From positions 3,770 to 67,769 of the forward strand of contig CAXTCD010000002.1 in the NCBI GenBank assembly GCA_964242145.1: a stretch of 64,000 nucleotides of DNA, given 5' to 3'. Position 1 is the stretch's first letter. The number at the start of each line of letters is the position of its first letter. The notes beneath the pieces were generated by a model. It did no database searches. It saw only the letters and a list, made by a program, of their open reading frames with translations, and had not been told where the DNA came from. Made by a program: the position numbers and the translations under genes. This stretch comes from an uncultured Rhizobacter sp. GTDB taxonomy: Bacteria > Pseudomonadota > Gammaproteobacteria > Burkholderiales > Burkholderiaceae_C. Below, piece after piece: positions 821 through 23,918 of the stretch.

Positions 821-2305
821 TCAGAACCCCTCTTCGACGAGTTCAGCTGCACGAAGCAACGCACGCGCCTTCGCTTCGGTCTCCTTCCATTCCAGCTCAG
901 GCACCGAATCGGCGACGACACCCGCCGCCGCCTGCACATACAACATGCCGTCCTTGACGATGCCCGTCCGGATGGCAATCGCAACGTCCATGTCGCCAGC
1001 GAAGCTGAGATAACCGCAAGCACCGCCATAGATGCCGCGCTTGACCGGCTCCAGCTCGTCGATGATCTCCATTGCGCGCACCTTCGGCGCGCCGGTCAAC
1101 GTGCCCGCCGGGAAGGTGGCCCGCAACACATCAAGGTTGGTGATGCCATCTTTCAGCAAACCTTCGACGTTGCTGACAATGTGCATCACATGCGAATAGC
1201 GTTCGACGGTGAACGCCTCGGTGACCTTCACGCTGCCGGTCTTGGCGATGCGGCCGATGTCGTTGCGCGCTAAGTCGATCAGCATCACATGCTCGGCGCG
1301 CTCTTTCGGATCGGCACTGAGTTCGGCTTCGAGCGCCTGGTCTTGTTCAGGCGTCGCACCGCGAGGCCGCGTGCCGGCCAGCGGGCGGATCGTGATCTTG
1401 TCGCCCTCGGCAGTGTGCTCCTGGCGCACCAGAATTTCCGGTGATGCCCCAACAATCTGGAAGTCACCCATGTCATAAAAATACATGTAAGGCGACGGAT
1501 TCAGCGAACGCAATGCGCGGTACAGGCTGAGCGGCGATTCGGTGTAGCGCTTCTTCAAACGCTGCCCGACCTGCACCTGCATCATGTCGCCGGCCGCGAT
1601 GTACTCCTTAGCGCGAAGTACCGCCGCGAGGTAATCCTCTTTGGCGAAATCACGCTCCACCGCATGCGCGCTGCCCCGGCGCACCGGCGGTGCCGTCACG
1701 CTGTATTTCAACTTGTCGTTGAGTTCAGCAAGGCGCCGCTTGGCGATGAAATAGGCTTCGCTCTGACTAGGGTCGGCATAGACGATCAAATAAAGCCGGC
1801 CCGACAGGTTGTCGATCACCGCCAGCTCTTCACACTGCAACAGCAGGATGTCCGGCGTGTCCAGGCCGCCGTCAGGCACAGAATTCACCAGCTTCGGTTC
1901 GATGTAGCGAACGGCGTCGTAACCGAAGTAACCAGCAAGCCCACCACAGAAGCGAGGCAAGCCCGGGCTCAACGCCACCTTGAATCGCTGCTGATAACTC
2001 GCAATGAAATCGAGCGGGTTGCAATCCACGGCCTCCACAACCTGATCATCAGTAACCACTTCGGTACGAAAGCCGGTCGCTCGCAGAAGCGTCTTGGCCG
2101 GTAACCCGATAAAGGAATAGCGGCCGAAGCGTTCGCCACCCACCACCGATTCGAGCAAAAAACTGTGCTTGCCCTTACCCGAGCCATAAGCCAGCTTGAG
2201 ATAGAGCGACAACGGCGTTTCGAGGTCGGCAAACGCCTCAGCCATCAACGGAATGCGGTTATAGCCTTGAGCGGCGAGGCTCTTGAATTCGAGTTCGGTG
2301 ATCAC
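821..2305 (-). CDS. trpE: Anthranilate synthase component I
   Basis: [57 protein letters not shown] and [10 protein letters not shown] motifs. Confidence 0.97.
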
Positions 2306-2447
2306 GGTCTGGACCCTCCGCGGCCCGGCAAGCGGCGCTTTAGCGGCTCGCGTGGTGATTGATTCGGTGCGGTCGGTACCCGAAAGGGTTACCGGTGGAG
2401 CCGAGGCGCGCGATCGTTCAGGATGAACTCACGCAACCTGCAGCAAA

Positions 2448-2528
2448 CTAACCCTGAGTAGGCTGGCGACGCCAGGGCCATGCTCCCCGGTCGTGAGACC
2501 CTTTGGTTTGTTTGCGCGCAATGAACAT
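2448..2528 (-). CDS. Candidate trpE leader peptide (26 aa, MFIARKQTKGSHDRGAWPWRRQPTQG)
   Basis: Short ORF ending 142 nt upstream of trpE on the same strand, with two Trp codons (W-P-W) near its C-terminus. Confidence 0.55.
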   Translation of the reverse strand: MFIARKQTKGSHDRGAWPWRRQPTQG

Positions 2529-2717
2529 CGAAAAAGTGTAGCAGGCCCACGAATGAGGGACCCTGAAAGCGAGCACACCCATGCAATATTGCCGGACTTC
2601 TTTCACAACAAATGCCTGTCTTGGGCAAAGCATCACGGACAGCGCGGGATCGCTTGCGGACAATTGCGATGACGCCTTGCTAACCCCCGCCATCCCATTG
2701 GTCCTGGAGAGATCGCC

Positions 2718-3338
2718 GTGATACCTCGCTTCATTTCCCAAGCTCTTCTCGCTGTATTGCTGTTCGTGCCGTTGGGCGCTTTGCACGCACAAACCACCGA
2801 AGTCGGTGGCGTGAAATTTGACAACACCGCCACGATTGCCAACACCAAAGTCGTTTTAAACGGGGCCGGCGTTCGCTACAAGGCGATCTTCAAGGTCTAT
2901 GCCGCGGGCCTGTATACGACCGCCAAGAGCGGCACACCGGAAGCGGTTTTAGCCACGCCCGGCCCGAAACGCATGCACATCGTGATGCTTCGCGACATCA
3001 ACGCCAGCGAATTGGGCAAGCTGTTCACGCGCGGCATGGAAGACAACGCGCCCCGCGAAGAATTCTCCAAATCGATTCCGGGTACCTTGACGATGAGCGA
3101 CTTGTTCTTCGCTAAAAAGAAGCTCAATGCTGGCGATTCGTTTTACCTCGACTGGATTCCTGGCGTTGGTACCAACATCGTGATCAATGGCAAAGCATCT
3201 GCCGAACCGATCAAGGAACCGGAGTTCTACTCGGCGTTGCTGAAGCTTTGGTTGGGCAAGAACCCCGCCGACACGTCACTCAAGGAGTCCCTGCTCGGCA
3301 GGCCGCCAGTGACCAATGCAAATGCCAACACCAACTGA
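2718..3338 (+). CDS. Exported chalcone-isomerase-fold protein
   Basis: Signal peptide (ALLAVLLFVPLGALHA), then LNGAGVRYKAIFKVYAAGLY and LWLGKNPAD, typical of bacterial chalcone isomerase-like proteins. Confidence 0.8.
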   Translation: MIPRFISQALLAVLLFVPLGALHAQTTEVGGVKFDNTATIANTKVVLNGAGVRYKAIFKVYAAGLYTTAKSGTPEAVLATPGPKRMHIVMLRDINASELGKLFTRGMEDNAPREEFSKSIPGTLTMSDLFFAKKKLNAGDSFYLDWIPGVGTNIVINGKASAEPIKEPEFYSALLKLWLGKNPADTSLKESLLGRPPVTNANANTN

Positions 3339-4278: not shown

Positions 4279-6132
4279 ATGAAGCCAGGCAACCTGCGGC
4301 CATTTCGCCGCCCTTCGGTGCGACAACTGATATGGGCATGCATGGCCCTGGCTGGTGGAGCTTTGCTGCTCGCGGCAGATTTCTGGTCTCTCCCGAAAAC
4401 CACGACTGTCGGACTTTCAGCGGCTGCGGCATGCGTGGGATTTATCGGCCGCAGACGGCTCTCCGATGCCATCACCCTCGCAATCCCAGCGCTCGCCGGC
4501 CCTTGGGTGGACGCGGACCTCGGCTCGCACGCCTTGTTCGTGGCGTGTTTGGTGCCTTACGTGCTTACGTGGCGGCCGCAGTTTGCCGCCGTGGCGGGAA
4601 GCAGCTCGGTCGCGCTGCTGCTGACAGGCATCGGCCTCAAAGAGCGATTTGCCGGCACCACGCTCACTTGGCAGGATTTGCGGTTCTTCTTCCTGCAGTT
4701 CACCGACAACGTTGGCGTGATGGCAAGCCAGCCAACGCTTCTTTTATACGCAGGCATTGCCTTGTGCCTTGCCGCACTGGTTTGCATCCTGGCCTGGCGC
4801 GGAGCGCCTGCCGGCCGCCCGTCGGGCTGGTGGACCACTGCTTCAACCGCCATTCTGGCCGCCCTCCTCATCGCACACAGCGGTGGCATCGTTGCGCGGA
4901 CGGCGTCGCAGTTGAGTGCGGCAGGTGATGCCTGGATCATCGGTGAAGGCCAGCTTGAGCACCGCCCGATCCTCACCTTCTTCGCCACGGCATTCCTGTC
5001 ACCTCGATGGGGCGTGAACTCCGCAGACACCGATGTGCTCCAGCACGAAAGTCGGAAGTTGATTTCTGACGGCGCGGTGGCGCGCCCGGCCGACATCGTC
5101 GTCTTCCTTCAAGAGAGCCAGTTCAACCCAGAAGCCATCTCCGGTTGCCCGGCAGCACTGTGCGCACTCGATGCGTTCCGCGGCCGGGACGAAACCGTGG
5201 CACACGGGCCGCTGCAGGTGCATACCTTCGGCGGTGGAACCTGGAAGTCGGAATTCGCTTTCCAGACGGGCGTTCCACACGCCGCGTTCGGGCCGGCGGG
5301 CGAGTTCGTGACGTTCAACGTCGCGCCGGGCACGCACCGCTCCTTCGTGCGATCGTTGAAGGCCGCGGGCTACCGCACAGTCGCCTTGTATCCAACCCGC
5401 GGCGGAATGATGAATGGCCGCGCCGCCTATGCTGCCTACGGCTTCGACGCGTTCTACGACGCTTCGGAGCAGGGTCTTTCCGGCGACTACGACACGCCGG
5501 ATGCGTTGGTGCATGCCGCTGCCCGCAAGGTGCTTGCGGGTGAGCGGCATCGCGATCAACCGGTGTTCCTGTTCGTGCTGACGATCTTCAACCACGCTGA
5601 GCATGGCGTGCGCATGGAACGGGTGCCGGCCAGACTCATCTCTGAAGCTTCCAAGGCTTTCGGCTCAACAGCGGAAGCGCAAAGCGTCGCCGATTACCTT
5701 TGGCGCACGAAAGAGTTCGAACGCGAACTGAATCTCACCCGCGAGGCCGTGCTCAACGCGCACAGGCCGGCAGTGCTCGCTTGGTTCGGAGACCATCAAC
5801 CGCCTTTTGCCAACGCGGTCACGTTGCGGCAGCGCATGCAGTCGCTGCCGACCGCAGCCGGGCGCGTGCCGACCCGGTATCAGACTTGGTACGAGGTAAC
5901 GAGCAACCGCCGTCGCCCCAACGAGGAACGGGCGGCGCGCGCCGTGGACATCGTCTTCCTGCCGGGGCTGCTTGCGCAGGCCGCAGGCGCGCCGCTCGAC
6001 GATTGGTTGGCGGCCAACGTCTGGGCACGAGGGCAGTGCGGCGGATTGCTGGAGGCATGCCAGGCACCCGCGGTGCGCGAGGCCTATCTCTCCTACCTCT
6101 GGCGAGACCTCCATGAGTTCGAACTGCCCTGA
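4279..6132 (+). CDS. LTA-synthase/sulfatase-fold membrane transferase (LtaS/WcbQ-like)
   Basis: N-terminal multi-TM region, then QES (metal site), GGTWKSEF (Thr nucleophile region), NH and FGDHQP motifs of the alkaline phosphatase/LtaS superfamily. Confidence 0.75.
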   Translation: MKPGNLRPFRRPSVRQLIWACMALAGGALLLAADFWSLPKTTTVGLSAAAACVGFIGRRRLSDAITLAIPALAGPWVDADLGSHALFVACLVPYVLTWRPQFAAVAGSSSVALLLTGIGLKERFAGTTLTWQDLRFFFLQFTDNVGVMASQPTLLLYAGIALCLAALVCILAWRGAPAGRPSGWWTTASTAILAALLIAHSGGIVARTASQLSAAGDAWIIGEGQLEHRPILTFFATAFLSPRWGVNSADTDVLQHESRKLISDGAVARPADIVVFLQESQFNPEAISGCPAALCALDAFRGRDETVAHGPLQVHTFGGGTWKSEFAFQTGVPHAAFGPAGEFVTFNVAPGTHRSFVRSLKAAGYRTVALYPTRGGMMNGRAAYAAYGFDAFYDASEQGLSGDYDTPDALVHAAARKVLAGERHRDQPVFLFVLTIFNHAEHGVRMERVPARLISEASKAFGSTAEAQSVADYLWRTKEFERELNLTREAVLNAHRPAVLAWFGDHQPPFANAVTLRQRMQSLPTAAGRVPTRYQTWYEVTSNRRRPNEERAARAVDIVFLPGLLAQAAGAPLDDWLAANVWARGQCGGLLEACQAPAVREAYLSYLWRDLHEFELP

Positions 6133-6254: not shown

Positions 6255-7151
6255 TCAGACGACCTGTGTGCCAGCGCGCAATTCCTCGATCAGCTGCAGC
6301 ACGAAGTTGTCGTTCTCATCGATGCGGCGTGCGATGTGAAGGGCCGAGAAGCCTTCATTGCCGAGCAAAGGCCGGTAGACCACGCCGGTGAGCTTGATGC
6401 ACTGGGCATCGGCCGGCACCACCGCCACTCCCACACCGGCAGCCACCAAGCCGACCATGATGGCGTAGTCACGCGCTTCTTTGGCAATGCGTGGATGGAA
6501 GCCGGCCTTCATGCACAGCTCATACAGTCGCCAGTACAAGCCGATCCCGGAGTTGCGCGGGAAGGTGATCAGTGGATGGTCTTTCAGATCAGAAATGCGG
6601 ATCGACGCAGATTCCGCCAGCACATGGTCGGACGGAATCGCTGCGACCAGCGGCGCGCGGTACCACTCCTCGATGACCACGCCCGCGGGCGACGAGATCT
6701 CGGGGCGGCGAACCACCCCCGCGTTGAGTTCACGGTTATGAATCGCCACCAGTTGATCGATCGAAGGCATCTCATGCACCGTCAGCCGAACCTGGGGCAG
6801 CCGCGCCCTGAAGCGGCGAATGGCTTGCGGCAACACGTCGCTGAACATCGCCGAGGCCGCATAGCCGAGGTGAACTTCGCCGATCTCGCCGTCGGCCGCG
6901 CGGCGCGTCATCTTCTGCGCTTCGTCGGCTGCGGCGAGGATGTCGCGCGCGCGTTCGAGCATCTGCTTGCCCGCCTGAGTCAGGAAGACTTTGCGTTTGT
7001 CGCGCTCGAAAAGCTGTGCGCCCAACTCCTCTTCCAACAGGCGGATCTGCGTGCTGAGCGGCGGCTGGGCGATATACAAACGTTTGGCAGCACGCGTGAA
7101 GTTCAGTTCTTCAGCGACGGCCACGAAGTAACGCAAATGACGAAGTTCCAA
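6255..7151 (-). CDS. LysR-family regulator (BenM/CatR/AlsR-like)
   Basis: ELRHLRYFVAVAEELNFTRAAKRLYIAQPPLSTQIRLLEEELG HTH; likely TTG start at 7151. Confidence 0.92.
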   Translation of the reverse strand: MELRHLRYFVAVAEELNFTRAAKRLYIAQPPLSTQIRLLEEELGAQLFERDKRKVFLTQAGKQMLERARDILAAADEAQKMTRRAADGEIGEVHLGYAASAMFSDVLPQAIRRFRARLPQVRLTVHEMPSIDQLVAIHNRELNAGVVRRPEISSPAGVVIEEWYRAPLVAAIPSDHVLAESASIRISDLKDHPLITFPRNSGIGLYWRLYELCMKAGFHPRIAKEARDYAIMVGLVAAGVGVAVVPADAQCIKLTGVVYRPLLGNEGFSALHIARRIDENDNFVLQLIEELRAGTQVV

Positions 7152-7309
7152 TGGGCTGATCTCGTTAAGTTCTGCTGAAGATCCTAGCGGCACATCCACT
7201 TCAGCACGGCCAGAAAAGCCCTTACCGTGGTCGGCATTGACACAGTGAGCGCGACAGGCCGCCATGCGGCGTTTGTCCATCACCGCTCAAACGGCCAGCC
7301 CGCTCACAC

Positions 7310-8449
7310 TCAGCTCGGAAAGGTGACGTTCGTGAACCCTGGAATTTCCACCTGCTCAGGGCGATTGCCATTGCGGCTCAGCGCGTCCACCACATAGTCG
7401 GCCACGCAGTTGGAAAGCAACTGCTGTGGGTCTTCCATGATGCGGCGCAGGCGTGCAACGCAAGCTTCCCGGTCGTCCAGCGACCGGATCACCGGCATGC
7501 CTTCGGATGGGCTGGGCGTGAATACATAAGCCTCATAGCCATCGAACATGCGACGCGACGCTTCCACCGAAGCCCGCGTATGGCACCAGATGCGGCGAAA
7601 GCTGGCCTCCAGCTCGACCATGCCCTGCTCGTCAGGCAGGTTTTGCACTGAAAAGCCCGGCGCATGCGGCGCCACATAAACCCGCTCATGTGTGATGTTA
7701 GTCGCGCGCCAGATCAGGTTGCACATGTTGTTGGACGACCAGGTTGCGCCAGCAGTCGGGCGGCCCGATCGCCCGCTGACAAGCACCATCGCGCGTTGCC
7801 AATCGACATCATGCTGCGTCAGCCATTTCTGGATGCGATATGCAATATCGACATAAGCCAGCCCGAAAGTCGAGAACATGATGTCGTTCATCGACACCGG
7901 CAACACGCTCGTGGGCGGGGCGAAGTACTGATCACGCAGCACGCTGAACTCAAGCAGCGTCGGATCTTTCAATGCGCGATCGACGTAGTCGGTCGTGCGG
8001 CTCAAGGTGTACTCGACCATCGCCGTGATCTTCGGCTCCAGGCCGGCGAAGGCCGAGAGCGATACCTGATCGCGCCACAGGCTCACGGTATTGGCGGCGC
8101 GCGTGCGCTCCATGTGATGGCGCAGCTTCAGCAGGCGCTCGCGCCAAGCCTCGCTCTCAGGTGCCATTTCACGCATGCGCGCGACGTAGCCGATGGCCAG
8201 CGGCACATGCGAGACCGCGGTCATTTCGATGAAGCCACGCGTCGATCGCCGAAAGCTTTCGATCTGCGCCGGCCGGCCCTGGCCCGGGAACAACACGATG
8301 TCGGATGCGGTCGAGACCAGCAAGGCGGCGTCGCGGCTGGCCTCATGCATGGCATTCGTCAGTTGCGAGCCGATGCTGTCGGCCTCATTGGTGAACGCCT
8401 TGAACAGCCCTTGAAAAGCCTCATTCACTTCATACACGGGTGTCGTCAT
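7310..8449 (-). CDS. Uncharacterised 379-aa cytoplasmic protein (resembles DUF5624-type proteins from memory; unverified)
   Basis: Long clean ORF whose start overlaps the upstream stop by 4 bp; no signal peptide and no catalytic motif I recognise. Confidence 0.7.
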   Translation of the reverse strand: MTTPVYEVNEAFQGLFKAFTNEADSIGSQLTNAMHEASRDAALLVSTASDIVLFPGQGRPAQIESFRRSTRGFIEMTAVSHVPLAIGYVARMREMAPESEAWRERLLKLRHHMERTRAANTVSLWRDQVSLSAFAGLEPKITAMVEYTLSRTTDYVDRALKDPTLLEFSVLRDQYFAPPTSVLPVSMNDIMFSTFGLAYVDIAYRIQKWLTQHDVDWQRAMVLVSGRSGRPTAGATWSSNNMCNLIWRATNITHERVYVAPHAPGFSVQNLPDEQGMVELEASFRRIWCHTRASVEASRRMFDGYEAYVFTPSPSEGMPVIRSLDDREACVARLRRIMEDPQQLLSNCVADYVVDALSRNGNRPEQVEIPGFTNVTFPS

Positions 8450-9576
8450 GTCGCATCGGTCTCAAGTATTTGATAGATGACACAGTCAGCCCGAAAACGC
8501 ACATCCGCTCCCAGGCTGTTGGAAATCGCAAGACATGGCTTGCCATCAAGCGTCAGCAATGCGGCATCGGTGCCGCCGGTGGTCGGAAACGCATCATCCA
8601 CCATCAAGCGATCGCCTTGCCAGCCATAGACGAACGCACTCAGTTTCGGCAACGGCGCCTCGCGCGTGCCGTGGATGAAGTTGACCTGCACCAGCCGGCC
8701 GGGGGTTCCTTCAATCCACTGAAACTCGCGCCCGCCGTGGCCGCTCAGCACTTGATGCTCGACAAACGCCGAGCCATCCCAGCGATACAGCAGCGAGTCG
8801 TCATGCAGATTGGCGAACGCCAGCCACAACGCGCCTTGCGCGCGGAAACTCGAAAAGGCCCGGCCACTTCCGCCACGCAATTCCTGATGCACAACGAATT
8901 CGCTGCCGCTCCAGCGCAACACACGCGAGCCTGCCGCATGGTCGGCGTAGAGCAGCAAGAAGCCAGCTTCGGTTTGCAGCGGCAGCCAGTTGTAGCCCCA
9001 GGCCGAAGGAATGCGCTGGAACTCAACGAAGCGCGCGCCATCCCATTTGAAGATGCACGACTCCCGGTTCTGATGGCCCGGCAGCAGCGCACCTTGCGCG
9101 AGCGCGAGGTAGTGCGAGTCTTCGAGTTCGAAGTGGCACCATTGTTTCGCCGCGAAGGTCGAGATAGCCTGGAACGGCACGAACTGCTGCCCGTTCCATT
9201 CGTAGATCGTCGATGCCACGTCCATCTGATACGGGCCGGCGCCTGCACGCAGGCTGGCCGTCGCAAGGAACTTGCGCACCCCGATCTCGAAGAATTCGGC
9301 GTCTTCACCGCCCGGCACCGGCAGGCGCTGCCCCTCCACGAAGCGGCCTTGGTCCCAGCGATAGATGATCAGGTCGACATCGCTGTTACCGCCAGTCATC
9401 GCTGCGGGCTTGTCCGGCACATCGGCTGCCAGTTGCGGCACGGCCAGGTATTGCACGCCATCGATCTGAAACGGCTCAACCGCGCGCGCGCCGCTGGTGG
9501 GCAGACGCTGCAGTTCTTTCAAACCCTGGGTTGGGCCGTAGGCCGCTGCGGCATCGGCGTGGATCGGTGTGTTCAT
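8446..9576 (-). CDS. EAR/EPTP-repeat 7-bladed beta-propeller protein
   Basis: Seven ~45-50-aa repeats of the form F-x-x-x-Q-x-[LI]...[FYW]LA...S-x-[IL]-[YF]-x-W-[DNS]-G-x-x-F; no signal peptide. Confidence 0.75.
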   Translation of the reverse strand: MNTPIHADAAAAYGPTQGLKELQRLPTSGARAVEPFQIDGVQYLAVPQLAADVPDKPAAMTGGNSDVDLIIYRWDQGRFVEGQRLPVPGGEDAEFFEIGVRKFLATASLRAGAGPYQMDVASTIYEWNGQQFVPFQAISTFAAKQWCHFELEDSHYLALAQGALLPGHQNRESCIFKWDGARFVEFQRIPSAWGYNWLPLQTEAGFLLLYADHAAGSRVLRWSGSEFVVHQELRGGSGRAFSSFRAQGALWLAFANLHDDSLLYRWDGSAFVEHQVLSGHGGREFQWIEGTPGRLVQVNFIHGTREAPLPKLSAFVYGWQGDRLMVDDAFPTTGGTDAALLTLDGKPCLAISNSLGADVRFRADCVIYQILETDAT

Positions 9577-10463
9577 GCTTCGAATTGGTAGAGGCGCGCC
9601 GGGTTGCCCGACAGCACTTTGTTGCGCGCATTCGCGTCGGGAATCCAGTCACCCAGCAGGTTCAGCAAGTCGCCGGTGTCTTTGTCGCCACGCGGAATGT
9701 GCGGCCAGTCGCTGCCCCAGACGGTGCGATCGCCGAGCTCGGCAACGATGGTCTCGGCCAAGGGGCGCAGCCGCGCGAAGTTGCCGTCCTTGGCGAGCCT
9801 GTACGGCGCGGACAGCTTGAGCCAGCCACGCCCGTCGCGCGCGGCGGTTACGAGGCGGTCGAAGTCGGCGCGGGTCAGGCCGTCCGACTCCAGCATGTAG
9901 CCCATGTGGTCGATCACGAAGTCGAAATCGAAATCTTTCATGAACGGAATCAGATCCCGCACCACATAGCCCGGCGTATAGAACTGCACGTGCCAGCCTA
10001 GGCGGCGAATGCGCTGCGCGCTTTTGCGGATGTAGTCGACGACCGAAGCAATTGGCCAACTGGCGCGCAGGAACAGGTCGAGCCGCACCGCGCGTACGCC
10101 TTGCTCATGCATGGCATCCAGCTCGCGGTCGGTGATCGTGTCTTCGATCATCACCACACCGCGCGCGATGTCCTGGCCGAGCGTGTCCAGCGCGTCCAGC
10201 AGGCAGCGGTTGTCGGTCGCGTAGTAGCTGGGCTGAACGATCGCGAAACGCTCCAGACCCATCGCAGCCGTCATCGCCAGCAGCTTCGGTGGCTCGCCGT
10301 CGGGCAGTGTGTAGTGCGGTGTGGCCACGCTAGGGTAGCGGCTCGCGGGGCCAAACACATGGACATGGGCGTCGCAGGCGCCGGGAGGCATCGCGAAGGC
10401 GGGTGGCGTGAGGCTGCTGGCGGCGCGGGTGGGCACCGATTCGAGAGGGGCGGCTTGGCTCAT
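9573..10463 (-). CDS. Amidohydrolase, LigI/PDC-hydrolase-like lactonase family
   Basis: CDAHVHVFGP, VQPSYY, ARGV, IDHMG and WGSDWPH motifs, parallel to those of the LigI at 22992. Confidence 0.85.
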   Translation of the reverse strand: MSQAAPLESVPTRAASSLTPPAFAMPPGACDAHVHVFGPASRYPSVATPHYTLPDGEPPKLLAMTAAMGLERFAIVQPSYYATDNRCLLDALDTLGQDIARGVVMIEDTITDRELDAMHEQGVRAVRLDLFLRASWPIASVVDYIRKSAQRIRRLGWHVQFYTPGYVVRDLIPFMKDFDFDFVIDHMGYMLESDGLTRADFDRLVTAARDGRGWLKLSAPYRLAKDGNFARLRPLAETIVAELGDRTVWGSDWPHIPRGDKDTGDLLNLLGDWIPDANARNKVLSGNPARLYQFEA

Positions 10464-11287
10464 GAGTTGTTAGCGATGGATTGAAGTGCGTTGCGAACGC
10501 GCTCGTGGGCTGCTGACAGCATCATTTCGGTGTCAATGCCCGTCATCAGGAACGGGGCGCCACCCAGGCGCAGAATTTCAAGGTTGTAGGCCGCGTCAGA
10601 GACGCCACCGATAGCCAGAGGCTTGCCGAGTGCGGCGCACACGCGCAGCGCATGGGCATGGGCCTCGCGCACCAGTGGATGGCTGGTCTGGCCGGGCACG
10701 CCGAGTTCGGCGCTGAGGTCGTTGGTGCCGACGCCGATGATGTCGATGCCCGGCAGCGAAGCGATCTGATGCAAGTTGTCGAGACCCAACTGGGTTTCGA
10801 TCAGCACCTTCACGATGGTCCCGCGGTTGGAGATTTCGTTCAACGCGGCGGCCGGCAGGCGCTGGTAGCGAACGGCCGGCAGCTGTGCAATCGCCGACCG
10901 GTGCCCGAGCGGTGGAAAGCGGCAAGCCGCCACCACATCGGCGGCTTGCGCAGCGGTGTCGATGCGCGGAGCAATGATGCCCATCGCCCCGCCATCCAGC
11001 AGCCGCCCGATTGCCCCGTATTCGCGCTCCGGTACGCGCACCAGCGGCGTCAGGCCGATGTCGATGGCCGCACTGCAGATCTGCGACGCCACCTCGATCG
11101 AGATGCTGCTGTGCTCCAGGTCGACCCAGATCACATCGTGGCCGCTGGCCTTGGCCAGACGGGCAATTTCAGCGGTGCGGGCAGAGCGCACGCCAAGCGC
11201 GGTGACCGGCTCTTTGCGGCGCAACCGTGCCACCACAGAAGCCGCGATGTCGGCGGGTTCGCTTCGAGGCTGCGTCTCGGTGTTCAT
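10460..11287 (-). CDS. HpcH/HpaI class II aldolase
   Basis: WVDLEHS, LVRVP, LIET and GTNDLS motifs of the HpcH/HpaI aldolase/citrate lyase family. Confidence 0.88.
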   Translation of the reverse strand: MNTETQPRSEPADIAASVVARLRRKEPVTALGVRSARTAEIARLAKASGHDVIWVDLEHSSISIEVASQICSAAIDIGLTPLVRVPEREYGAIGRLLDGGAMGIIAPRIDTAAQAADVVAACRFPPLGHRSAIAQLPAVRYQRLPAAALNEISNRGTIVKVLIETQLGLDNLHQIASLPGIDIIGVGTNDLSAELGVPGQTSHPLVREAHAHALRVCAALGKPLAIGGVSDAAYNLEILRLGGAPFLMTGIDTEMMLSAAHERVRNALQSIANNS

Positions 11288-11294
11288 GCTGTGG

Positions 11295-12269
11295 TCAGTT
11301 GAGAGTGATGTTCTTTGCCTTGATCAGACGGCCCAGCGACTCGGTCTCGGCGTCGTCAGTCTTCTGCATTTGTTCCGGTGAGACGGTGATCGCGTCAGAA
11401 CCGGCGTCAGCAATCGCCTTTGCAACAGCGGTCGTCTTGGTGGCCGCGTTGAGTGCCGCATTGATGCGGGTCACGATGGCCGCAGGCGTGCCCTTCGGCG
11501 CGTAGACACCGACCGAGGTGTAGATCTCCAGGCCGGGCACAGTTTCGGCAAGCGTTGGCACGTCCGGCAAGGCCGCGCTGCGCTTGCCACCGGTATAAGC
11601 CAGCGCCTTAATGCGGCCGGTCTTGATGTTAGGCAGCGCTGAGACCGGCGGCTCGAAGCCGATGGCCACCTGACCACTGATCACGTCGGGCATCGCGCTT
11701 TGCTTATAGGGAATCTGCACCAGCCGGATGTTTGTCGCGTCCTGCAACTGCTCCATGCCCAGGTGGGCTGTGCTGCCGGCACCATAGGACGCATACATCA
11801 CCGATTCGGCCTTCTGCTTGGACAGCGCGATCACATCCTTGATCGACTTGGCCGGAAAGTCGGCATTGGCCACGATGAACGAGCCCCCGCGATACAACTG
11901 CGCCACCGGCATCAGGTCTTTGCGCGGGTCATAGGGCAGCTTTGAAAACAGGTGCGGCGCGGCCGTCACCGGCAGGCTGGTGGTCAGCAAAAAGGTATAG
12001 CCGTCAGGTGGCGACTTGGCGACGGCATCGGTCCCGATGGTGCCGGCCGCGCCCGGCTTGTTCTCGACGATTACCGTGACGCCGAGCGCCTTGCCCAGAT
12101 TTTCGGCATACAAGCGGGCGAACGAATCAGCGCCGACGCCGGCGGGCGAAGGCGTGACGAAGCGAATCGTTCGTGAAGGCCAAACCTCTTGTGCAGAGGC
12201 AGGGAAAGCCGCCGCCGCGATGGCGACGGCAGAGAACATCAGGCCCAGAAAGGGTTTGAAACGGCGCAT
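11295..12269 (-). CDS. Bug/TctC tripartite tricarboxylate transporter binding protein
   Basis: Signal peptide, WPSRTIRFVTPSPAG, VENKPGAAG, PPDGYTFL and DVPTLAE. Start re-assigned to MRRFKPF at 12269. Confidence 0.92.
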   Translation of the reverse strand: MRRFKPFLGLMFSAVAIAAAAFPASAQEVWPSRTIRFVTPSPAGVGADSFARLYAENLGKALGVTVIVENKPGAAGTIGTDAVAKSPPDGYTFLLTTSLPVTAAPHLFSKLPYDPRKDLMPVAQLYRGGSFIVANADFPAKSIKDVIALSKQKAESVMYASYGAGSTAHLGMEQLQDATNIRLVQIPYKQSAMPDVISGQVAIGFEPPVSALPNIKTGRIKALAYTGGKRSAALPDVPTLAETVPGLEIYTSVGVYAPKGTPAAIVTRINAALNAATKTTAVAKAIADAGSDAITVSPEQMQKTDDAETESLGRLIKAKNITLN

Positions 12270-12411
12270 GGAGTCTTCCTCAGGTGATCGAGTCGGTTTT
12301 GTCACTTCCGATCGAGTGGCTTCGACGTCCACTCGGATCTGCTCAACCGATCGGCGACCTGATGCCGTCTTCGATGGGTCGAAGTTGCATCCTAGGTTCG
12401 CGGACTCATAC

Positions 12412-12430
12412 CTGGAAATACTATTTCCAG
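12412..12430. promoter_or_regulatory. Perfect 19-bp palindrome CTGGAAATA-C-TATTTCCAG, putative operator
   Basis: Perfect dyad in the AT-rich region about 140 bp upstream of the Bug operon. Confidence 0.6.
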
Positions 12431-12535
12431 CGCTCTTTGAATATTTAAAACGTATTTAAGGTCAAATACGGAGGCTTTTCAGCCATTCCTCGTCAATGGG
12501 CGCGATCAGCGCCCGACATCACGCACGAGGCGTGA

Positions 12536-13693
12536 TCAATACATCAATTTGCCTTCGGCGGTGATCACACCAATGTCGACAAAACGGCTGCCCACATTGC
12601 CGTGTGTGAAGTCGACGCTGAAGCCTGCCAGGTCGATCGGCTCAGCGTGCAACGCCGCCGACAGCGCTGTTGGCGTCGACGCACGGGCGCGGCGCAGCCC
12701 TTCAGTCAATACGCGAGCGGTGATGAAGCCCTCGAATTGCAATGGAGTGAGGTCTTTGATGTCGGGGAAGGTTTGCCGCATCGCTGTCTGGAATTCACGT
12801 TGAAGCGGGGTGTTGAGGCCCATCGGGTTCGGGTAGCTCTGCGTCACCGCAATACCGCGCGTCCGCGTGCCAACGACCTGCATCAGCTGCGAAGTCGGTA
12901 CATCCGAGGTCACATAGATGTGCTGATTGGCCCCGGCAGTTCTCAACGCATTGACGCCTGCCACGATGAACGATGGCGCGCCCAGCACCAACGTGCATTG
13001 CGGCTCGCCGGCCATCGCCAGGCGGGCCGCCTTTTGCAGATCGGCCGGATCGGCACCGGACTGCACTGCCGAGACCGTCATGCCGGGGAGCGTCTTGGCG
13101 ACCGCAGCAGCCACCGCGGCACCCGACTGGCCGACCGGCGCGTCGTGATGAAGGATCGAAATGCGGGTGATACCCAACGTCGCTGCATGCTGAACGAGGC
13201 GTGAAATCTCCTGCCGATCGCCCGCGCGAAGGTGAAACAGCTTCGGGTGACCCGGATCCCGCAGCGCCTGCGCACCCGGAATGGCGTTCAGCACGATCAC
13301 GTCATAGGCGTCGAGAAGTTTTTCCTCAAGCACCTTCTTCATCATCGTCGAGCCGATCGGCGATAAGACTGCGATCGGCCTGAGCTGCATCGCTTCGCGA
13401 AGCCGCGTACCGAAGACCGCCGGATCTCGTTGGTCATCGAACAATACAAGACGAATCGTTGAGGCGCGAACGCCACCGCGCTTATTGAACTGGGCCAGAT
13501 GCGCGCGGATACCTTCGTTGACTTCGCGAGCATCGCCGGCGGCAGGGCCGGTCATCGGGCCGATTTGCACGGCGATCAACTCATCGGCCTGCGCCAGTCC
13601 AAATGAGAACAACAGAACGCTAAGCCAACTCAAAAAAACCAAACGTTGTCGGAGACGGCCCCGTAGGAAATTCTTTGATGATTCAAAAAGCAT
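12536..13693 (-). CDS. Type I periplasmic (LIV-like) ABC substrate-binding protein
   Basis: Signal/TM N-terminus, IGPMTGPAAG, DDQRDP, LFHLRAGDRQE and FEGFITARVLTEGLRRA. No permease or ATPase adjacent. Start approximate. Confidence 0.82.
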   Translation of the reverse strand: MLFESSKNFLRGRLRQRLVFLSWLSVLLFSFGLAQADELIAVQIGPMTGPAAGDAREVNEGIRAHLAQFNKRGGVRASTIRLVLFDDQRDPAVFGTRLREAMQLRPIAVLSPIGSTMMKKVLEEKLLDAYDVIVLNAIPGAQALRDPGHPKLFHLRAGDRQEISRLVQHAATLGITRISILHHDAPVGQSGAAVAAAVAKTLPGMTVSAVQSGADPADLQKAARLAMAGEPQCTLVLGAPSFIVAGVNALRTAGANQHIYVTSDVPTSQLMQVVGTRTRGIAVTQSYPNPMGLNTPLQREFQTAMRQTFPDIKDLTPLQFEGFITARVLTEGLRRARASTPTALSAALHAEPIDLAGFSVDFTHGNVGSRFVDIGVITAEGKLMY

Positions 13694-14067: not shown

Positions 14068-15123
14068 TTAAAAGTTGTGGGACAAACCGATTTGCAGCCC
14101 GCTGACCGAGGCGCCCGGCGTGCTGTCCGGAGACGCGTCACCGGTGACGTAAACCGCATTGCCCTTGTTGTTGATCTTCGAATACGTACCGTACAAGGCG
14201 GTCCGCTTGCTCAGCGCATGAACGTAGCCCACGCCCAGCTGCGTGGAATCATCACCATCCAGGCCGGTGCCGGAACGGTCAGCACGAGCAATGGAGAACT
14301 TGAAGGTGCCCTGCGGCCCAACCGGCGCGGTCAAGCCGAGCAGGTAGTTCTTCTGCTCGTCGTTCTCGGCGCGCTGGTCGAAGTAATAGCCCATCAAGCG
14401 CACCAGGCCGAAGTTATACGAAGCGCCGACATTGAAGAACTTCACGTCGTCGTTGGCGACCTTCGTCTCGCCATAGGCCACCGCCACGTCCACCGGGCCT
14501 TCGGCATAGCCGGCGCGAGCGCCAACGAAACGCGTGCCGTCGACGCCTTCAGGCAGAGCTGCCAACGCCTGGCCATAGAAGCCGCCCAAATTCTTTGGCA
14601 GGAAGTAGCCAATCGAATTGCTGGTGCGCACGAAGGTCCGCGCGCCGCCTACGCCGAATGGATAGCCTTCAATAATGTTGGCCGAACCCGCCACGCCCAC
14701 CGTGCCGAAGGGCGCAAACTGCGAGACGTTCCAGAAGACCGGCGTGTAATCGCGGCCCAGCCGCAACTCACCGAGCGTCGCGGACGACAGACTCACGGTG
14801 GAACGGCGATGCCACGCCACGCCTTGCTGCGCACCGGTGTCGGCCAGGATGGCTGACTCAATCCAGAAACTTGCGGCCAGACCGCCGCCGAGGTCTTCAG
14901 TACCGCGGAAGCCGAGCCGGCTCGGGAAAATATTGCCGCCCTGATCCAGCGCGGTGCGCGACTCGCCGCCAGCTTTGGAGTAAGTCACGTTCAAGTCGAT
15001 CGTTCCGAAGATCTGGACATTGGATTGCGCAAAGGCGCTGGAGGTGCCGGTCATCGACAAGATCCCGGCGATGGCCAAAGCCAGCGGGGCTGCGATGCGA
15101 ACAGTGTGAAATGAACTTTTCAA
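14068..15123 (-). CDS. Betaproteobacterial general diffusion porin
   Basis: AFAQSNVQIFGTID, SRLGFRGTEDLGGGL, LSKRTALY and C-terminal HNF; TTG start. Confidence 0.93.
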   Translation of the reverse strand: MKSSFHTVRIAAPLALAIAGILSMTGTSSAFAQSNVQIFGTIDLNVTYSKAGGESRTALDQGGNIFPSRLGFRGTEDLGGGLAASFWIESAILADTGAQQGVAWHRRSTVSLSSATLGELRLGRDYTPVFWNVSQFAPFGTVGVAGSANIIEGYPFGVGGARTFVRTSNSIGYFLPKNLGGFYGQALAALPEGVDGTRFVGARAGYAEGPVDVAVAYGETKVANDDVKFFNVGASYNFGLVRLMGYYFDQRAENDEQKNYLLGLTAPVGPQGTFKFSIARADRSGTGLDGDDSTQLGVGYVHALSKRTALYGTYSKINNKGNAVYVTGDASPDSTPGASVSGLQIGLSHNF

Positions 15124-15315
15124 GGTGGCTCCGGTGATGACGTGAAGAGATCGTAGGGAGCGGATTGTTCTGGCTACAAATACATCTTTAAAGCTTCAAT
15201 ATATATTTTTTTGGTATGACCACCCCCTGACGCCCGGTGGACAGGCGCGAAAACAGTGAGATCGGACCCACCATGACAGGGGTTAATCCCAAGGGTTTTG
15301 TCACACGTTGACGCC

Positions 15316-16239
15316 TTATTGCGACAGCTTGGTGCCTCCGAAGGCGTCCGCAATCAAAGAACGAAGCCATCGATTACCAACATCGTCGTTGGCACGCCGG
15401 TGCCAGAAAGTGCAAGTGCGCAAAACAGGCAAACGCAATGGCGGCTTGGCGCAGACCAGGCCCAAGGGCTCGGCGAATTGCGGCACCAGGCGGTCGGGCA
15501 CCGTGACGACGCAATCCGACGCCGCGACGATGAACGGCGCTGTCAAGAAACTGGCCACCTGATCGTGCCCAGCTCGCAACACGCCGGCCTTTTCCATTCG
15601 CCGCTGGATTTCCGCGTAGGGGCCGACCGCATCGGCTACAAAAAGATGCCTGGCTGCACGAAATTCAGCTAACGACGTCGGCGGGCGGCGTGCAAAGGGG
15701 TGCGACGCGCGAAACAGGCTCACGCACTGCTGGCGAAACAGCAACTGGCGGAACAGACCCTCGGGCATGTCTTCAAACGGCGCCACCGCCAGATCGATGC
15801 TGCCGTCGTGCAAGGCTTCGCGCAGTGCCGCGCCGTTGGAGCGCACTGCACTCAAGCGAACACCCGGTGCGATCTCGGCGCAGAGCGCGATCAAGCTCGG
15901 CATGAAGTGGACTTCGCCGACATCGGTCATCGCAACGCTGAAGTGCCGATCGCTGGTCGCGGGATCGAATGCGTCTTGCTGATGAATGCTGTTCTGGATC
16001 AGCGCCAGCGCCGCAGCGATCGGCTCGGAGAGCTGCAACGCCAGACGCGTGGGCTGCATCGAATGCCCCGCGCGCACGAACAGCTCGTCGTCAAAGGTTG
16101 CGCGCAGCCGCGTCAGCGCATTGCTCGCTGCTGGTTGTGACAGGCCGAGATTGCGCGCCGCCTGCGAGATCTGCCGCGTCGACATCACCTCCCGGAACAC
16201 GACCAGCAAGTTGAGATCGAGATCTCGCAGCGTCTTCAT
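15316..16239 (-). CDS. LysR regulator, NahR/DntR-like
   Basis: MKTLRDLDLNLLVVF HTH, FDPATSDRHFSVAMTDVGEVHFMP and FWHRR...GNRWLR; divergent from hmgA. Confidence 0.9.
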   Translation of the reverse strand: MKTLRDLDLNLLVVFREVMSTRQISQAARNLGLSQPAASNALTRLRATFDDELFVRAGHSMQPTRLALQLSEPIAAALALIQNSIHQQDAFDPATSDRHFSVAMTDVGEVHFMPSLIALCAEIAPGVRLSAVRSNGAALREALHDGSIDLAVAPFEDMPEGLFRQLLFRQQCVSLFRASHPFARRPPTSLAEFRAARHLFVADAVGPYAEIQRRMEKAGVLRAGHDQVASFLTAPFIVAASDCVVTVPDRLVPQFAEPLGLVCAKPPLRLPVLRTCTFWHRRANDDVGNRWLRSLIADAFGGTKLSQ

Positions 16240-16254
16240 CGGCAGGCCACCTCT

Positions 16255-16269
16255 ATTCATAATGTGAAT
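16255..16269. promoter_or_regulatory. LysR box ATTCA-N5-TGAAT between lysR and hmgA
   Basis: ATTCATAATGTGAAT contains a T-N11-A dyad in the divergent promoter. Confidence 0.6.
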
Positions 16270-16355
16270 GGCGTGTATTTTGGCCTGCCGCTTGTCTTGA
16301 TAGATCATTCCGCCAAGAATTGATTCCTTCCCCTTCCAGGATCAAGGAGCCCGCC

Positions 16356-17672
16356 ATGGAAAGCCCTCCCTCGCACGGCCTGCGCTACCTGACCGGTTTT
16401 GCCAATGAATGGGCGACCGAGGCCTTGCCCAGCGCACTGCCCGCCTCGCAAAACTCGCCGCAGCAATGCGCCTATGGCCTCTATGCCGAGCAGATCTCCG
16501 GCACCGCCTTCACGGCACCACGGCATCGCAACCGCCGCTCCTGGCTTTACCGCATTCGCCCGGCGGCTGCGCACCGGCCGTTCGAGCGCATCGACAACGG
16601 TCGCTTCACCAACGACTACGGCACCCAGCCCACCACGCCCAACCAGCTGCGCTGGGACCCGATGCCGCTGCCCGCCGCCGATGCACCGACCGACTTCATC
16701 GATGGCCTGTTCAGCATGGCCGGCAATGGCGACCCGCTCGCGCAGTCGGGCGCCGGCATTCACATGTATGCCGCCAACCGCTCGATGACGCGCTTCTTCT
16801 GCAATGCCGATGGCGAGCTGCTGATCGTTCCGCAGCAAGGCCGGCTGCGCTTGGCTACCGAGTTAGGTTTGTTGGATGTAGAGCCGCAGGAGTTCGCCGT
16901 TATTCCGCGCGGCATTCGTTTTCGGGTTGAACTGCTGGACGGAGCCGCACGCGGCTACATCTGCGAGAACTTCGGTGCGCCCTTCCAGCTGCCCGACCTC
17001 GGTGTGATCGGCTCCAACGGCCTGGCCAACCCGCGCGACTTTCAAACGCCTGAAGCCTGGTTCGAAGACATCGACGGCGAGTTCGATCTGGTCACCAAAT
17101 TCGGTGGCAACCTGTGGCGCGCCAAACTCGACCATTCCCCGTTGGACGTTGTGGCTTGGCACGGCAACTACGCGCCCTACAAATATGACCTGCGCCGCTT
17201 CAACACCATCGGTTCGATCAGCCACGACCACCCGGACCCGTCCATCTTCCTGGTATTGCAATCACCGTCCGACACACCCGGCGTCGACACCATCGATTTC
17301 GTCGTCTTCCCGCCGCGCTGGCTGGTCGCCGAAAACACCTTCCGCCCGCCTTGGTTCCATCGCAACGTCGCCAGCGAATTCATGGGCCTGATCCACGGCC
17401 ATTACGACGCCAAGGCCGAAGGCTTCGCGCCGGGCGGCGCGAGCCTGCACAACTGCATGAGCGGCCACGGCCCGGACGCCGCCACCGTTCGCAAGGCCAG
17501 CGCCGAAGACACACTGCAGCCGCGCAAGGTCGACGCGACGATGGCCTTCATGTTCGAGACCCGCCACGTGATCCGCCCAACGCCCGCCGCCCTCGCCGCC
17601 TCTCAGCTGCAAGCGAACTACTACCAGTGCTGGCTGGACGTCGAGAAACAATTCCATCCGGAGCACCCATGA
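16356..17672 (+). CDS. hmgA: Homogentisate 1,2-dioxygenase
   Basis: [53 protein letters not shown] and [12 protein letters not shown] motifs; AAGGAG RBS before ATG 16356. Confidence 0.96.
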
Positions 17673-18961: not shown

Positions 18962-19015
18962 CGTTAGGTCATCTGTCGAACCCGAGCGGCGGCGACGTGG
19001 CCTTGGTCGCTTCGC

Positions 19016-19492
19016 TCACAGCGGCAAGCCTGCCGCGCGCTTGACCGTGTCCAGCACAAAGCTCGACTTGCAGTCGCGCACGCTCGGGTGGCGCAGCAGC
19101 TTCTCGGAAATGAAGTTTGAGAAGTGCGCCATGTCGACGGCCACCACCCGCAGCAAAAAGTCCATCTCGCCCGTCAGCGACACGCATTCGATCACCTCCG
19201 GCCACGTTTCCACCGACACCCGGAACTGCTCCATCGGGCTGCTGCGCTGCGTGCTCTCGATGTGCTTTTCCAGCCGCACGTTGATGTAAGCCTGCAAGCC
19301 CATGCCGGCCTTCTTCGCATCGACCATCGCACGGTAGCTGACGATGACGCCGGACTCCTCAAGCCGCCTCACCCGGCGCAGCACGGTCGAAGGCGACAGC
19401 CCCAGCGCCAGCCCGAGCTCGTCGTAAGTCGCTCGGCCATGGTCTTGCAGTGCACGAAGCATGCGCTTGTCGATCTCATCCATCTCGTTCAT
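19016..19492 (-). CDS. Lrp/AsnC regulator divergent from hppD
   Basis: [44 protein letters not shown] and C-terminal [11 protein letters not shown]; start 19492 or 19483. Confidence 0.9.
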
Positions 19493-19609
19493 TGCAACCA
19501 CCTCTTGCCGTTGCAGGATTATTGCAAACAACCCGCTCTCACCGGCCCTCAATGCAGGAAGCCTGCGGCCCGCGCGGCCTACAGTTCCTGGCTTCAACTG
19601 GAGAGCGAC

Positions 19610-20805: not shown

Positions 20806-23918
<3,113 letters not shown>

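Follow-up and report, generated by a model that had tools for sequence, protein, structure and literature searches.

The 64,000-nucleotide stretch of an uncultured Rhizobacter sp. contig (CAXTCD010000002.1) analysed here, referred to as the window, carries an operon of five genes encoding a Bug/TctC-type solute-binding protein, an HpcH/HpaI-family class II pyruvate aldolase, a LigI-like lactone hydrolase of the Amidohydro_2 family, an EPTP/EAR beta-propeller of the animal epilepsy-repeat type and a DUF5624 protein, followed by a gene for a LysR-type regulator (Table 1). The operon is real, and is a member of a widespread, uncharacterised breakdown pathway in which the EPTP and DUF5624 proteins form the constant core. 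A chance arrangement is excluded because the gene set is conserved across phyla and because its genes are found as natural fusions. A preliminary description of the region had proposed five same-strand genes joined by a 7-nucleotide gap and three four-base overlaps, which the positions of the open reading frames (ORFs) and a direct reading of the junctions bear out. The Bug stop codon (TGA) is followed by 7 nucleotides (CCACAGC) and then by the ATG of the aldolase gene, while ATGA overlaps are found at 10460-10463, 9573-9576 and 8446-8449. The LysR gene is co-oriented, as had been described, but it is not coupled to the other five, with about 158 nucleotides separating DUF5624 from LysR at its likely TTG start.

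The gene neighbourhood is strongly conserved. A scan of species-representative genomes recovered this cluster from four genomes of Acidovorax type and from two further betaproteobacterial ones, with 55-70% identity per protein, and a metagenome scan added 80 further loci. Neighbours were counted at every locus in which DUF5624 has 4 kb or more of sequence on each side (n = 30), several of which are closely related, many metagenomic and some redundant; independent lineages among them number roughly twenty. EPTP lies beside DUF5624 in every one of the 30, and the lactonase (Amidohydro_2), the aldolase (HpcH) and LysR are each present in 28. Porin_4 is found in 19, MFS in 17 and Bug in 11. The module loci span Betaproteobacteria, Alphaproteobacteria, Myxococcota and Actinomycetota, and their gene orders, regulators and transporters vary. 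Paraburkholderia xenovorans, Pandoraea iniqua and the myxococcotan Pendulispora rubella have a divergent LysR gene with HpcH, Amidohydro_2, DUF5624, MFS and EPTP (plus porin), and Variovorax has HpcH, Amidohydro_2, EPTP, DUF5624, TctC and porin. The locus of Thermocatellispora tengchongensis (Actinomycetota) reads GntR, ABC (ATP-binding cassette) transporter, EPTP, DUF5624, HpcH and Amidohydro_2, and that on a megaplasmid of Sinorhizobium sp. RAC02 reads Amidohydro_2, ABC transporter, divergent LysR, EPTP and DUF5624. No other enzyme family is conserved across the related loci, which share neither a dehydrogenase nor a recognised oxygenase or other redox enzyme. Among 400 sampled genomes of the window's own order, both core families were found only in the window's genome, bar one noise match; the module is rare and patchy. 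Each of the two genes is present there in a single copy.

The pair of EPTP and DUF5624, rather than the five-gene set, is the invariant unit. A separate clade, with DUF5624 proteins 42-47% identical, has only LysR, MFS, EPTP and DUF5624 in a row (e.g., loci L074, L077, L080 and L098), and a convergent gene for a TonB-dependent receptor often follows these pair-only clusters.

Gene fusions point in the same direction. A profile search of 1.84 billion cluster representatives yielded 349 family members, among which EPTP-DUF5624 fusions of 769-850 amino acids (aa) occur in some bacteria. One bacterial fusion of 770 aa is preceded by HpcH and Amidohydro_2 with a divergent GntR gene, an operon context like that of the window. 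The reversed order, DUF5624-EPTP, is seen in protein P0279, which has a signal peptide and a DUF5624 half that by eye resembles a secreted subfamily typified by the Legionella structure 4JX2. Triple fusions of EPTP, DUF5624 and Abhydrolase_1, about 1070-1090 aa long, are fungal (Ascomycota) and were found in Trichoderma virens, T. evansii, Talaromyces proteolyticus, Penicillium lagena, Cladobotryum mycophilum, a Xylariales species, Rhinocladiella similis and Zarea fungicola; in the two fungal genomes checked they are single uninterrupted ORFs. Their third domain is closest to the 3-oxoadipate enol-lactonase PcaD (TIGR02427, E 7e-25 and 1e-20, below the equivalog cut-off), and a second, unrelated type of lactonase is therefore coupled to the pair. 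Fusions in both orders, and to an unrelated lactone hydrolase, are strong evidence, at the level of gene architecture, that the two proteins work together and that lactone hydrolysis would be coupled to their reaction. The earlier suggestion that the propeller and its 379-aa partner supply new steps gains weight from this obligate pairing and from the fusions. In Streptomyces niveus, proteins of 616-619 aa (P0434-P0440) join an ABC-transporter ATPase domain to an EPTP propeller, and the overlapping ABC ATPase and EPTP genes of Thermocatellispora (L016) echo this arrangement.

The EPTP protein has no signal peptide and no further domain and is taken to be cytoplasmic. Its AlphaFold model (predicted local distance difference test score, pLDDT, 93.5) forms seven four-stranded blades, and its best Protein Data Bank (PDB) matches in Foldseek are the EPTP domains of LGI1, with template modelling (TM) scores of 0.72-0.83; WD40 proteins and lectins come next, and the 50 best matches include no enzyme propeller. 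The repeats and the LGI1-like seven-bladed fold place the protein in the EPTP family, outside the extracellular context with attached leucine-rich-repeat, laminin-G or G-protein-coupled-receptor modules that marks its animal members. The DUF5624 protein belongs to its family by its Pfam match and by a fold like that of 4JX2 (model pLDDT 86.7; TM 0.79). By sequence the match to 4JX2 covers residues 50-374 (E 2.7e-20, about 20% identity), and the structure search returned this entry only, with nothing else at E < 0.1 and no enzyme relative. 4JX2 is Legionella pneumophila lpg1979, an uncharacterised, putative secreted protein that shares with DUF5624 a GF-x-EMTA-x-SH motif.

Both families contain many invariant polar residues. 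Those conserved at 97% or more are R31, D52, E91, D92, R110, K144, Q145, N196, D212, H213, R239, R283, E284 and D337 in EPTP, and R67, E75, S80, H81, D201, R205, R230, R256, R285, R292, R333, R335, E339 and D340 in DUF5624. Judged by their chemistry, they are of the type that could bind anions or act as acid/base groups. Conservation of N196, D212, H213, R239 and E284 among the microbial EPTP proteins does not extend to LGI1. There is no four-histidine centre in the propeller, H213 being its only conserved histidine, and a Pfam scan of the module proteins detected no cofactor-binding family.

Table 1. Positions of the module genes, the flanking uptake genes and the predicted control elements in the window.
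Feature	Position	Strand	Size and evidence
LysR-type regulator	ORF 6255-7283, likely 6255-7151	minus	342-aa ORF; HTH_1 and LysR_substrate
DUF5624 protein	7310-8449	minus	379 aa; PF18538, E 1.2e-32
EPTP/EAR beta-propeller	8446-9576	minus	376 aa; PF03736, E 1.9e-45, 5 repeats scored
LigI-like lactone hydrolase, Amidohydro_2	9573-10463	minus	296 aa; PF04909, E 1e-40
HpcH/HpaI-family class II pyruvate aldolase	10460-11287	minus	275 aa; PF03328, E 2.5e-29
Bug/TctC	11295-12332, start 12269	minus	ORF 345 aa; PF03401, E 3e-65
LysR operator and promoter (predicted)	12384-12455	minus	upstream of Bug; comparative alignment
Peripla_BP_6 solute-binding protein	12536-13693	minus	PF13458; between porin and Bug
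Porin_4 outer-membrane porin	14068-15123	minus	PF13609, E 5e-57; signal peptide visible in sequence
Degenerate LysR operator/promoter copy (putative)	15147-15217	minus	upstream of porin gene; alignment with orthologous cluster promoters

The chemistry of the other two enzymes is more readily predicted. The closest solved relative of the Amidohydro_2 protein is LigI (4D8L, E 2.5e-40), and it shares 36% identity with the window's own LigI (22992-23918). Equivalents of LigI H31, H33, Y49, R124, Y156, H180 and D248 are present in the alignment with 4D8L, and that of R130 in BLAST and MAFFT alignments; none of the eight positions varies among 40 of 40 distinct module orthologues, apart from a gap at one position in a truncated sequence. 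In LigI, as Hobbs et al. are reported to have found in 2012, His31, His33, His180 and Asp248 are catalytic, and Tyr49, Arg124, Arg130 and Tyr156 bind the substrate. Retention of both arginines that contact the carboxylates of 2-pyrone-4,6-dicarboxylate (PDC) points to a dicarboxylated lactone or pyrone as the probable substrate. The family match, the similarity to LigI and the shared catalytic and binding residues place the protein among the LigI/COG3618 metal-independent lactonases. Its best NCBIfam match, 4-sulfomuconolactone hydrolase, scores 148 bits against a cut-off of 500, and no equivalog can be assigned.

The HpcH protein is closest among solved structures to YfaU (2VWS, E 6.5e-29) and has equivalents of YfaU H49, R74, E153 and D179. 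In the module protein, R84, H59, E164 and D190 are at least 97% conserved across 34 orthologues. It thus retains the class II catalytic set of an arginine, a water-activating histidine and two metal-binding carboxylates, and belongs to this class. It scores with the GarL and RhmA models (E 5e-29 and 1e-28, respectively) and falls within none of the named equivalogs HpaI, GarL or RhmA, with 98-116 bits against NCBIfam cut-offs of 369-441.

The module also has its own means of uptake. Initiation of the Bug gene at its tabulated start (MRRFKPF...) is reasonable, with a signal peptide following M22. The signal peptide, the family match and the presence of TctA genes elsewhere in the genome identify the protein as a Bug/TctC member; all three TctA genes are on other contigs, with none in the window, and Bug is accordingly an orphan gene. 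Its orthologues in the Acidovorax and Variovorax clusters are 52-57% identical. Among related loci, Bug is exchanged for an aromatic-acid MFS transporter or an ABC-type system, and by family the MFS proteins are aromatic-acid/H+ symporters (TIGR00895, E 4e-78). Outer-membrane uptake is always supplied in the related loci, either by a porin or by a TonB-dependent receptor. By this comparison, the cluster in the window is taken to extend further upstream and to include the Porin_4 gene, which is counted into the system because homologous porins, up to 65% identical, adjoin the module in 19 of the 30 related loci. The Peripla_BP_6 gene between porin and Bug encodes a LivJ-like orphan with no ABC permease or ATPase nearby. 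It was considered as a part of the module and rejected, as it has no counterpart in related loci and does not meaningfully resemble the ABC binding protein of Thermocatellispora; it is probably an unrelated insertion.

Comparison of promoters suggests how the operon is controlled. Homologues and family models align with the LysR protein only from residue 39-46 of its ORF, and a TTG at 7151 gives a protein of 298 aa beginning MELRHLRYF, the usual LysR N-terminus. This TTG is the likely start, although the reading frame is open to 7283. Upstream of Bug lie ATACGTTTTAAATAT (12441-12455), GTATTTCCAGGTAT (12408-12421) and a -10-like CCTAGGAT (12389-12396). Intergenic alignment places the same three elements, at fixed spacing, in the LysR-divergent promoters of 11 orthologous clusters, with the consensus ATAC-N7-(G/A)TAT ... 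GTATTTCC-N3-TAT ... CCTA(G/C)(G/C)AT. Both LysR domains, together with the predicted ATAC-N7-ATAT and GTATTTCC-N3-TAT sites upstream of Bug, support assignment of the regulator to the LysR family. A consensus promoter scan found no promoter, terminator-like sites were fewer than in shuffled sequence, and the operator was found by comparative alignment only. The operon most likely starts at Bug under the control of its cognate LysR. Orthologues of this regulator in related clusters (53-61% identity) are placed divergently, and the gene appears to have been relocated to the downstream end in the window. A weaker copy of the elements, ATACCAAAAAAATAT ... GTATTTGTAGCCAG ... CCTACGAT, is found upstream of the porin gene and may represent a degenerate copy of the operator and promoter.

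Clusters of the Paraburkholderia type have a different palindrome, ATTGATTT-N7-AAATCAAT, and LysR proteins only 36-40% identical to that of the window; given two operators and divergent LysR proteins, the module is therefore wired to two regulator lineages. In the promoters of the Paraburkholderia-type loci L013, L014, L015 and L022-L027, the conserved operator is TTCATTGATTT-N7-AAATCAATAA, followed by GAGAATAAATCAAAA.

Clues to the substrate come from the genes around the module. BD-FAE (PF20434) proteins with signal peptides lie beside it in at least three bacterial lineages, and in L085 such a gene comes immediately after EPTP within one operon. Pendulispora and L097, the metagenomic locus whose DUF5624 is closest to that of the window, have lipoproteins of the tannase family (PF07519), and a COesterase/BD-FAE gene occurs in the Talaromyces neighbourhood. 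No tannase was found in the window's genome, which is 91.6% complete. Aromatic catabolic genes are a further feature of the setting: the window has hmgA-fah, hppD, a lig cluster and pobA, while neighbours elsewhere include a ring hydroxylase (Variovorax), paa genes (Pendulispora) and a coenzyme A (CoA)-dependent aromatic-acid set (P. xenovorans).

Other genes in the vicinity are recorded here as observations. In the window, a LysR gene (15316-16308, minus strand) diverges from hmgA (16320-17672) and a fumarylacetoacetase gene, after which come the genes for an Lrp-type regulator and hppD (15316-20686 overall); a complete homogentisate route thus lies between the module and the lig cluster, making the region an aromatic-catabolic island. 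On the other side, a 617-aa protein (4279-6132, plus strand) is encoded convergently to the module's LysR gene; it has a sulfatase-family domain at residues 307-528 (E 5e-16), and its N-terminal 300 residues match no family. A second propeller-like protein, with the look of YVTN repeats, 27% identity and no Pfam match, adjoins the module in four lineages (L103:12326-13270; L084:3770-4885; L002 and L036, about 2000-3200, minus strand). The L084 protein carries a signal peptide, and its gene is next to EPTP on the upstream side; it was considered as an EPTP paralogue and rejected, being a YVTN-like propeller seen in a few loci. In Sinorhizobium sp. RAC02 (plasmid pBSY16_1, L100:10863-15992), EPTP and DUF5624 are followed by genes for a DUF1537-type acid-sugar kinase, GntR, an Fe-alcohol dehydrogenase, a PdxA-family dehydrogenase and a BNR-repeat protein, a set that resembles tetronate-type acid-sugar genes, with no HpcH gene nearby. 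Small genes of the glyoxalase/VOC superfamily lie a few genes from the module in Paraburkholderia (L013:15208-15609), Thermocatellispora (L016:14995-15414) and Talaromyces (L102:3270-3872). The two bacterial VOC genes, which were the ones compared, do not match each other (tblastn, E 1e-6), and the presence of these genes may be a coincidence.

These features suggest a self-contained module for the uptake and catabolism of a carboxylate, probably derived from an ester outside the cell, by a scheme to which we would give an even chance of being right. The carboxylate, once freed from its ester, would cross the outer membrane through the porin (or through a TonB-dependent receptor in other lineages). 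It would then be captured by Bug and handed over to TctAB proteins encoded elsewhere, a role that would fall to the aromatic-acid/H+ MFS or ABC systems of other lineages. In the cytoplasm, EPTP and DUF5624 would act as one catalytic unit, either as a complex or in consecutive steps, and would form or rearrange a carboxylated lactone. The LigI-like hydrolase would open this lactone to a 4-hydroxy-2-oxo acid, which the HpcH aldolase would cleave to pyruvate and an aldehyde or oxo-acid. LysR would bind the ATAC-N7-RTAT / GTATTTCC operator upstream of Bug and induce the operon when the substrate or an intermediate is present.

We infer the order of these steps and the lactone intermediate, as we do the catalytic role of the pair and the ester origin of the substrate. 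Action of the pair first is favoured because pair-only operons carry their own transporter, and loci with only LysR, MFS, EPTP and DUF5624 suggest that the pair would act on the imported compound. A lactone intermediate is favoured because the pair has two independent lactonase partnerships. It is possible, though on the whole doubtful, that the two proteins make up an unrecognised two-part enzyme that takes an aromatic-type acid through the key step, be it ring opening or lactone formation, with no help from a recognised oxygenase, cycloisomerase or cofactor family.

Several points weigh against the proposed scheme. The pair-only loci are metagenomic contigs, and their lactonase and aldolase could be encoded elsewhere. 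The data allow more than one order of steps, and the lactonase could act first on an imported lactone. Neither core protein resembles a known enzyme fold in Foldseek, so that catalysis by the pair is an assumption. The conserved neighbours in fungi are an FAA-hydrolase-family protein and a cytochrome P450, not an HpcH aldolase, and the pathway may end differently there; the Talaromyces neighbourhood adds a glutathione S-transferase (GST), a glyoxalase-family protein and MFS.

Retention of all catalytic residues and both PDC-carboxylate arginines in the lactonase would also fit a reversed sequence, in which a PDC-like pyrone or carboxy-lactone is imported and opened first. EPTP and DUF5624 would then be a tautomerase and a hydratase that replace LigU/GalD and LigJ/GalB without being homologous to them, and HpcH would replace LigK. 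The module has four redox-free enzymes, the same count as the lig lower pathway in the window, and the layout of LysR, MFS, porin and four enzymes is like that of the gal cluster of Pseudomonas putida. This reversal is nevertheless rather unlikely. Loci that combine the pair with its own transporter and regulator, and that have no lactonase or aldolase, do not fit it, and the pair has no fold similarity to PrpF or to amidohydrolase hydratases. Nor is the module a simple substitute, since it is found together with a complete lig pathway in the window and with a LigK orthologue in four of five other genomes.

An oxygen-dependent reaction offers another explanation, which we consider unlikely. 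The pair would be a new kind of enzyme that opens the ring of a hydroxylated aromatic acid (e.g., one of gallate type released by tannase or feruloyl esterase) and would supply a pyrone or muconolactone to the lactonase and aldolase. The aromatic-acid family of the transporters, the adjoining tannase and BD-FAE esterases, and the position of the module among aromatic catabolic genes here (hmgA, hppD, lig and pobA) and in other genomes are consistent with this idea, as is the P450 conserved as a fungal neighbour. With no recognised oxygenase conserved, the ring of an aromatic substrate would have to be opened by the pair. Against this, no known oxygenase motif is seen in the pair, the propeller does not have the four-histidine centre, no cofactor-binding family was detected, and the aromatic substrate is itself deduced from context.

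Catabolism of a sugar acid appears improbable. The lactone of an aldaric or related acid (e.g., glucaro- or galactarolactone from hydroxycinnamoyl-aldarate esters) would be isomerised or opened by the Amidohydro_2 protein, the pair would be a new lyase or cycloisomerase giving 5-keto-4-deoxyglucarate, and cleavage by HpcH would be GarL-like. Such a route needs no redox step and could explain the scores of HpcH with the GarL and RhmA models, its sugar-acid aldolase relative YfaU and the acid-sugar genes (DUF1537-type kinase and PdxA) beside the pair in Sinorhizobium. PDB matches of the lactonase include 4MUP, which we take to be galactarolactone isomerase; the lactonase is, however, far closer to LigI (E 2.5e-40) than to 4MUP (E 3e-19). 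The MFS transporters are of the aromatic-acid type, not of the glucarate/galactonate type, and the P450, GST and FAA-hydrolase genes near the fungal fusions do not fit sugar acids.

That the pair is non-catalytic, with binding, scaffolding or regulatory roles beside chemistry done by lactonase and aldolase alone, is very improbable. In favour of this reading, animal EPTP domains are protein-interaction modules (LGI1-ADAM22 structures) and neither protein has a recognisable catalytic fold. A pair-only operon would on this view, however, contain a transporter and a regulator but no enzyme at all. Joining to a PcaD-like hydrolase, as in the fungal proteins, is a typical trait of multi-step enzymes, and the microbial families have many invariant Arg, Asp, Glu and His residues of their own. 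A lactonase and an aldolase alone are also rarely a complete route.

To our knowledge, the EPTP/EAR propeller is otherwise known only from animal synaptic and hearing proteins, and literature searches found no paper on DUF5624 or on microbial (bacterial, prokaryotic or fungal) EPTP proteins. The EPTP repeat is evidently not restricted to animals. Coupled EPTP/DUF5624 units occur among bacteria of soil and roots, in at least four phyla, and fused ones in many saprotrophic and plant-associated fungi. The predictable chemistry of the lactonase and aldolase, and the suitability of Bug and LysR for ligand fishing, make the system tractable. Once its substrate is identified, the map of the carbon cycle would probably gain a missing route for an ester, lactone or aromatic acid of plant origin, and the enzymes might serve as new biocatalysts for the valorisation of lignin, tannin or polyester monomers. 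If the two-part enzyme were real, it would be the first enzymatic role for the EPTP/EAR fold and would open a new trans-kingdom route for acids derived from plant esters.

The cluster is of a known kind, a LysR-controlled lactone/aromatic-type catabolic operon, whose two core proteins may constitute a categorically new enzyme. That it differs from the canonical lig cluster, as the preliminary description held, agrees with the separate cluster at about 20.8-31.6 kb in the window, which has its own LigC, LigAB, LigI, TctC, LigK, LigJ, PrpF and PobA genes. No characterised pathway in the libraries searched contains homologues of the module, with no NCBIfam equivalog cut-off reached and the only DUF5624 relative a hypothetical protein; the expectation of an undescribed pathway thus holds within these libraries. 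The LigK orthologue found together with the module in four of five other module-bearing genomes is 73% identical, and the idea that the module replaces the lig lower pathway was rejected on this coexistence. A PrpF-type tautomerase, a LigJ/GalB hydratase and an RraA-like aldolase for 4-carboxy-4-hydroxy-2-oxoadipate, which define the lig/gal lower pathway, are not part of the module either here or in the related loci.

By analogy, the module would work like the lig/gal and beta-ketoadipate lactone steps, in which a lactone is processed and a C-C bond is then cleaved to give central metabolites. It belongs to none of the lig, gal or beta-ketoadipate pathways, because the isomerase, hydratase, cycloisomerase and aldolase families that define them are absent. 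With the lower pathway of protocatechuate 4,5-cleavage (LigI, LigU, LigJ and LigK; about 22.9-29.4 kb in the window) it has in common a lactonase homologous to LigI (36% identity) in which the catalytic and carboxylate-binding residues are the same, a series of four redox-free steps that finishes with aldol cleavage to pyruvate, and a Bug-type binding protein. It differs in having EPTP, DUF5624 and an HpcH-fold aldolase instead of PrpF/LigU, a LigJ-type hydratase and the RraA-like LigK. The gal (gallate) cluster of P. putida comprises LysR, an aromatic-acid MFS transporter, a porin and four enzymes ending in an aldolase. The module resembles it in its LysR, aromatic-acid-type MFS, dedicated porin and four catabolic enzymes with a terminal aldolase, but has a LigI-like lactonase and lacks the LigB-type dioxygenase, PrpF-like isomerase, GalB hydratase and RraA-like aldolase.

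The lactone steps of the beta-ketoadipate pathway involve a cycloisomerase, a lactone isomerase/decarboxylase and the enol-lactonase PcaD, and the fungal 3-carboxymuconate lactonising enzyme is a beta-propeller. A propeller beside a lactone hydrolase, the PcaD-like domain of the fungal triple fusion and the aromatic-catabolic context are thus common to both systems. The EPTP propeller is, however, closest to LGI1, the bacterial module ends in an aldolase and pyruvate rather than in CoA transfer and thiolysis, and DUF5624 has no counterpart in that pathway. In L-ascorbate catabolism of Cupriavidus necator, as Stack et al. (J Am Chem Soc 142:1657) are said to have described it in 2020, a beta-propeller-like protein forms a carboxy-lactone that an amidohydrolase-superfamily lactonase opens. 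That pathway reportedly runs through a PdxA decarboxylase instead of an aldolase and is not known to include a DUF5624 partner. For DUF5624, 4JX2 is the only structural and sequence relative and has the GF-x-EMTA-x-SH motif in common with it; 4JX2 is secreted and only about 20% identical, and it is P0279, similar by eye to this secreted subfamily, that is fused to EPTP. The animal EPTP/EAR proteins (LGI1-4, TSPEAR and ADGRV1) share the Pfam repeat family and the seven-bladed fold with the microbial EPTP proteins, which in contrast are cytoplasmic, stand alone or are fused to DUF5624, are encoded in catabolic operons and have conserved polar residues that are absent from LGI1.

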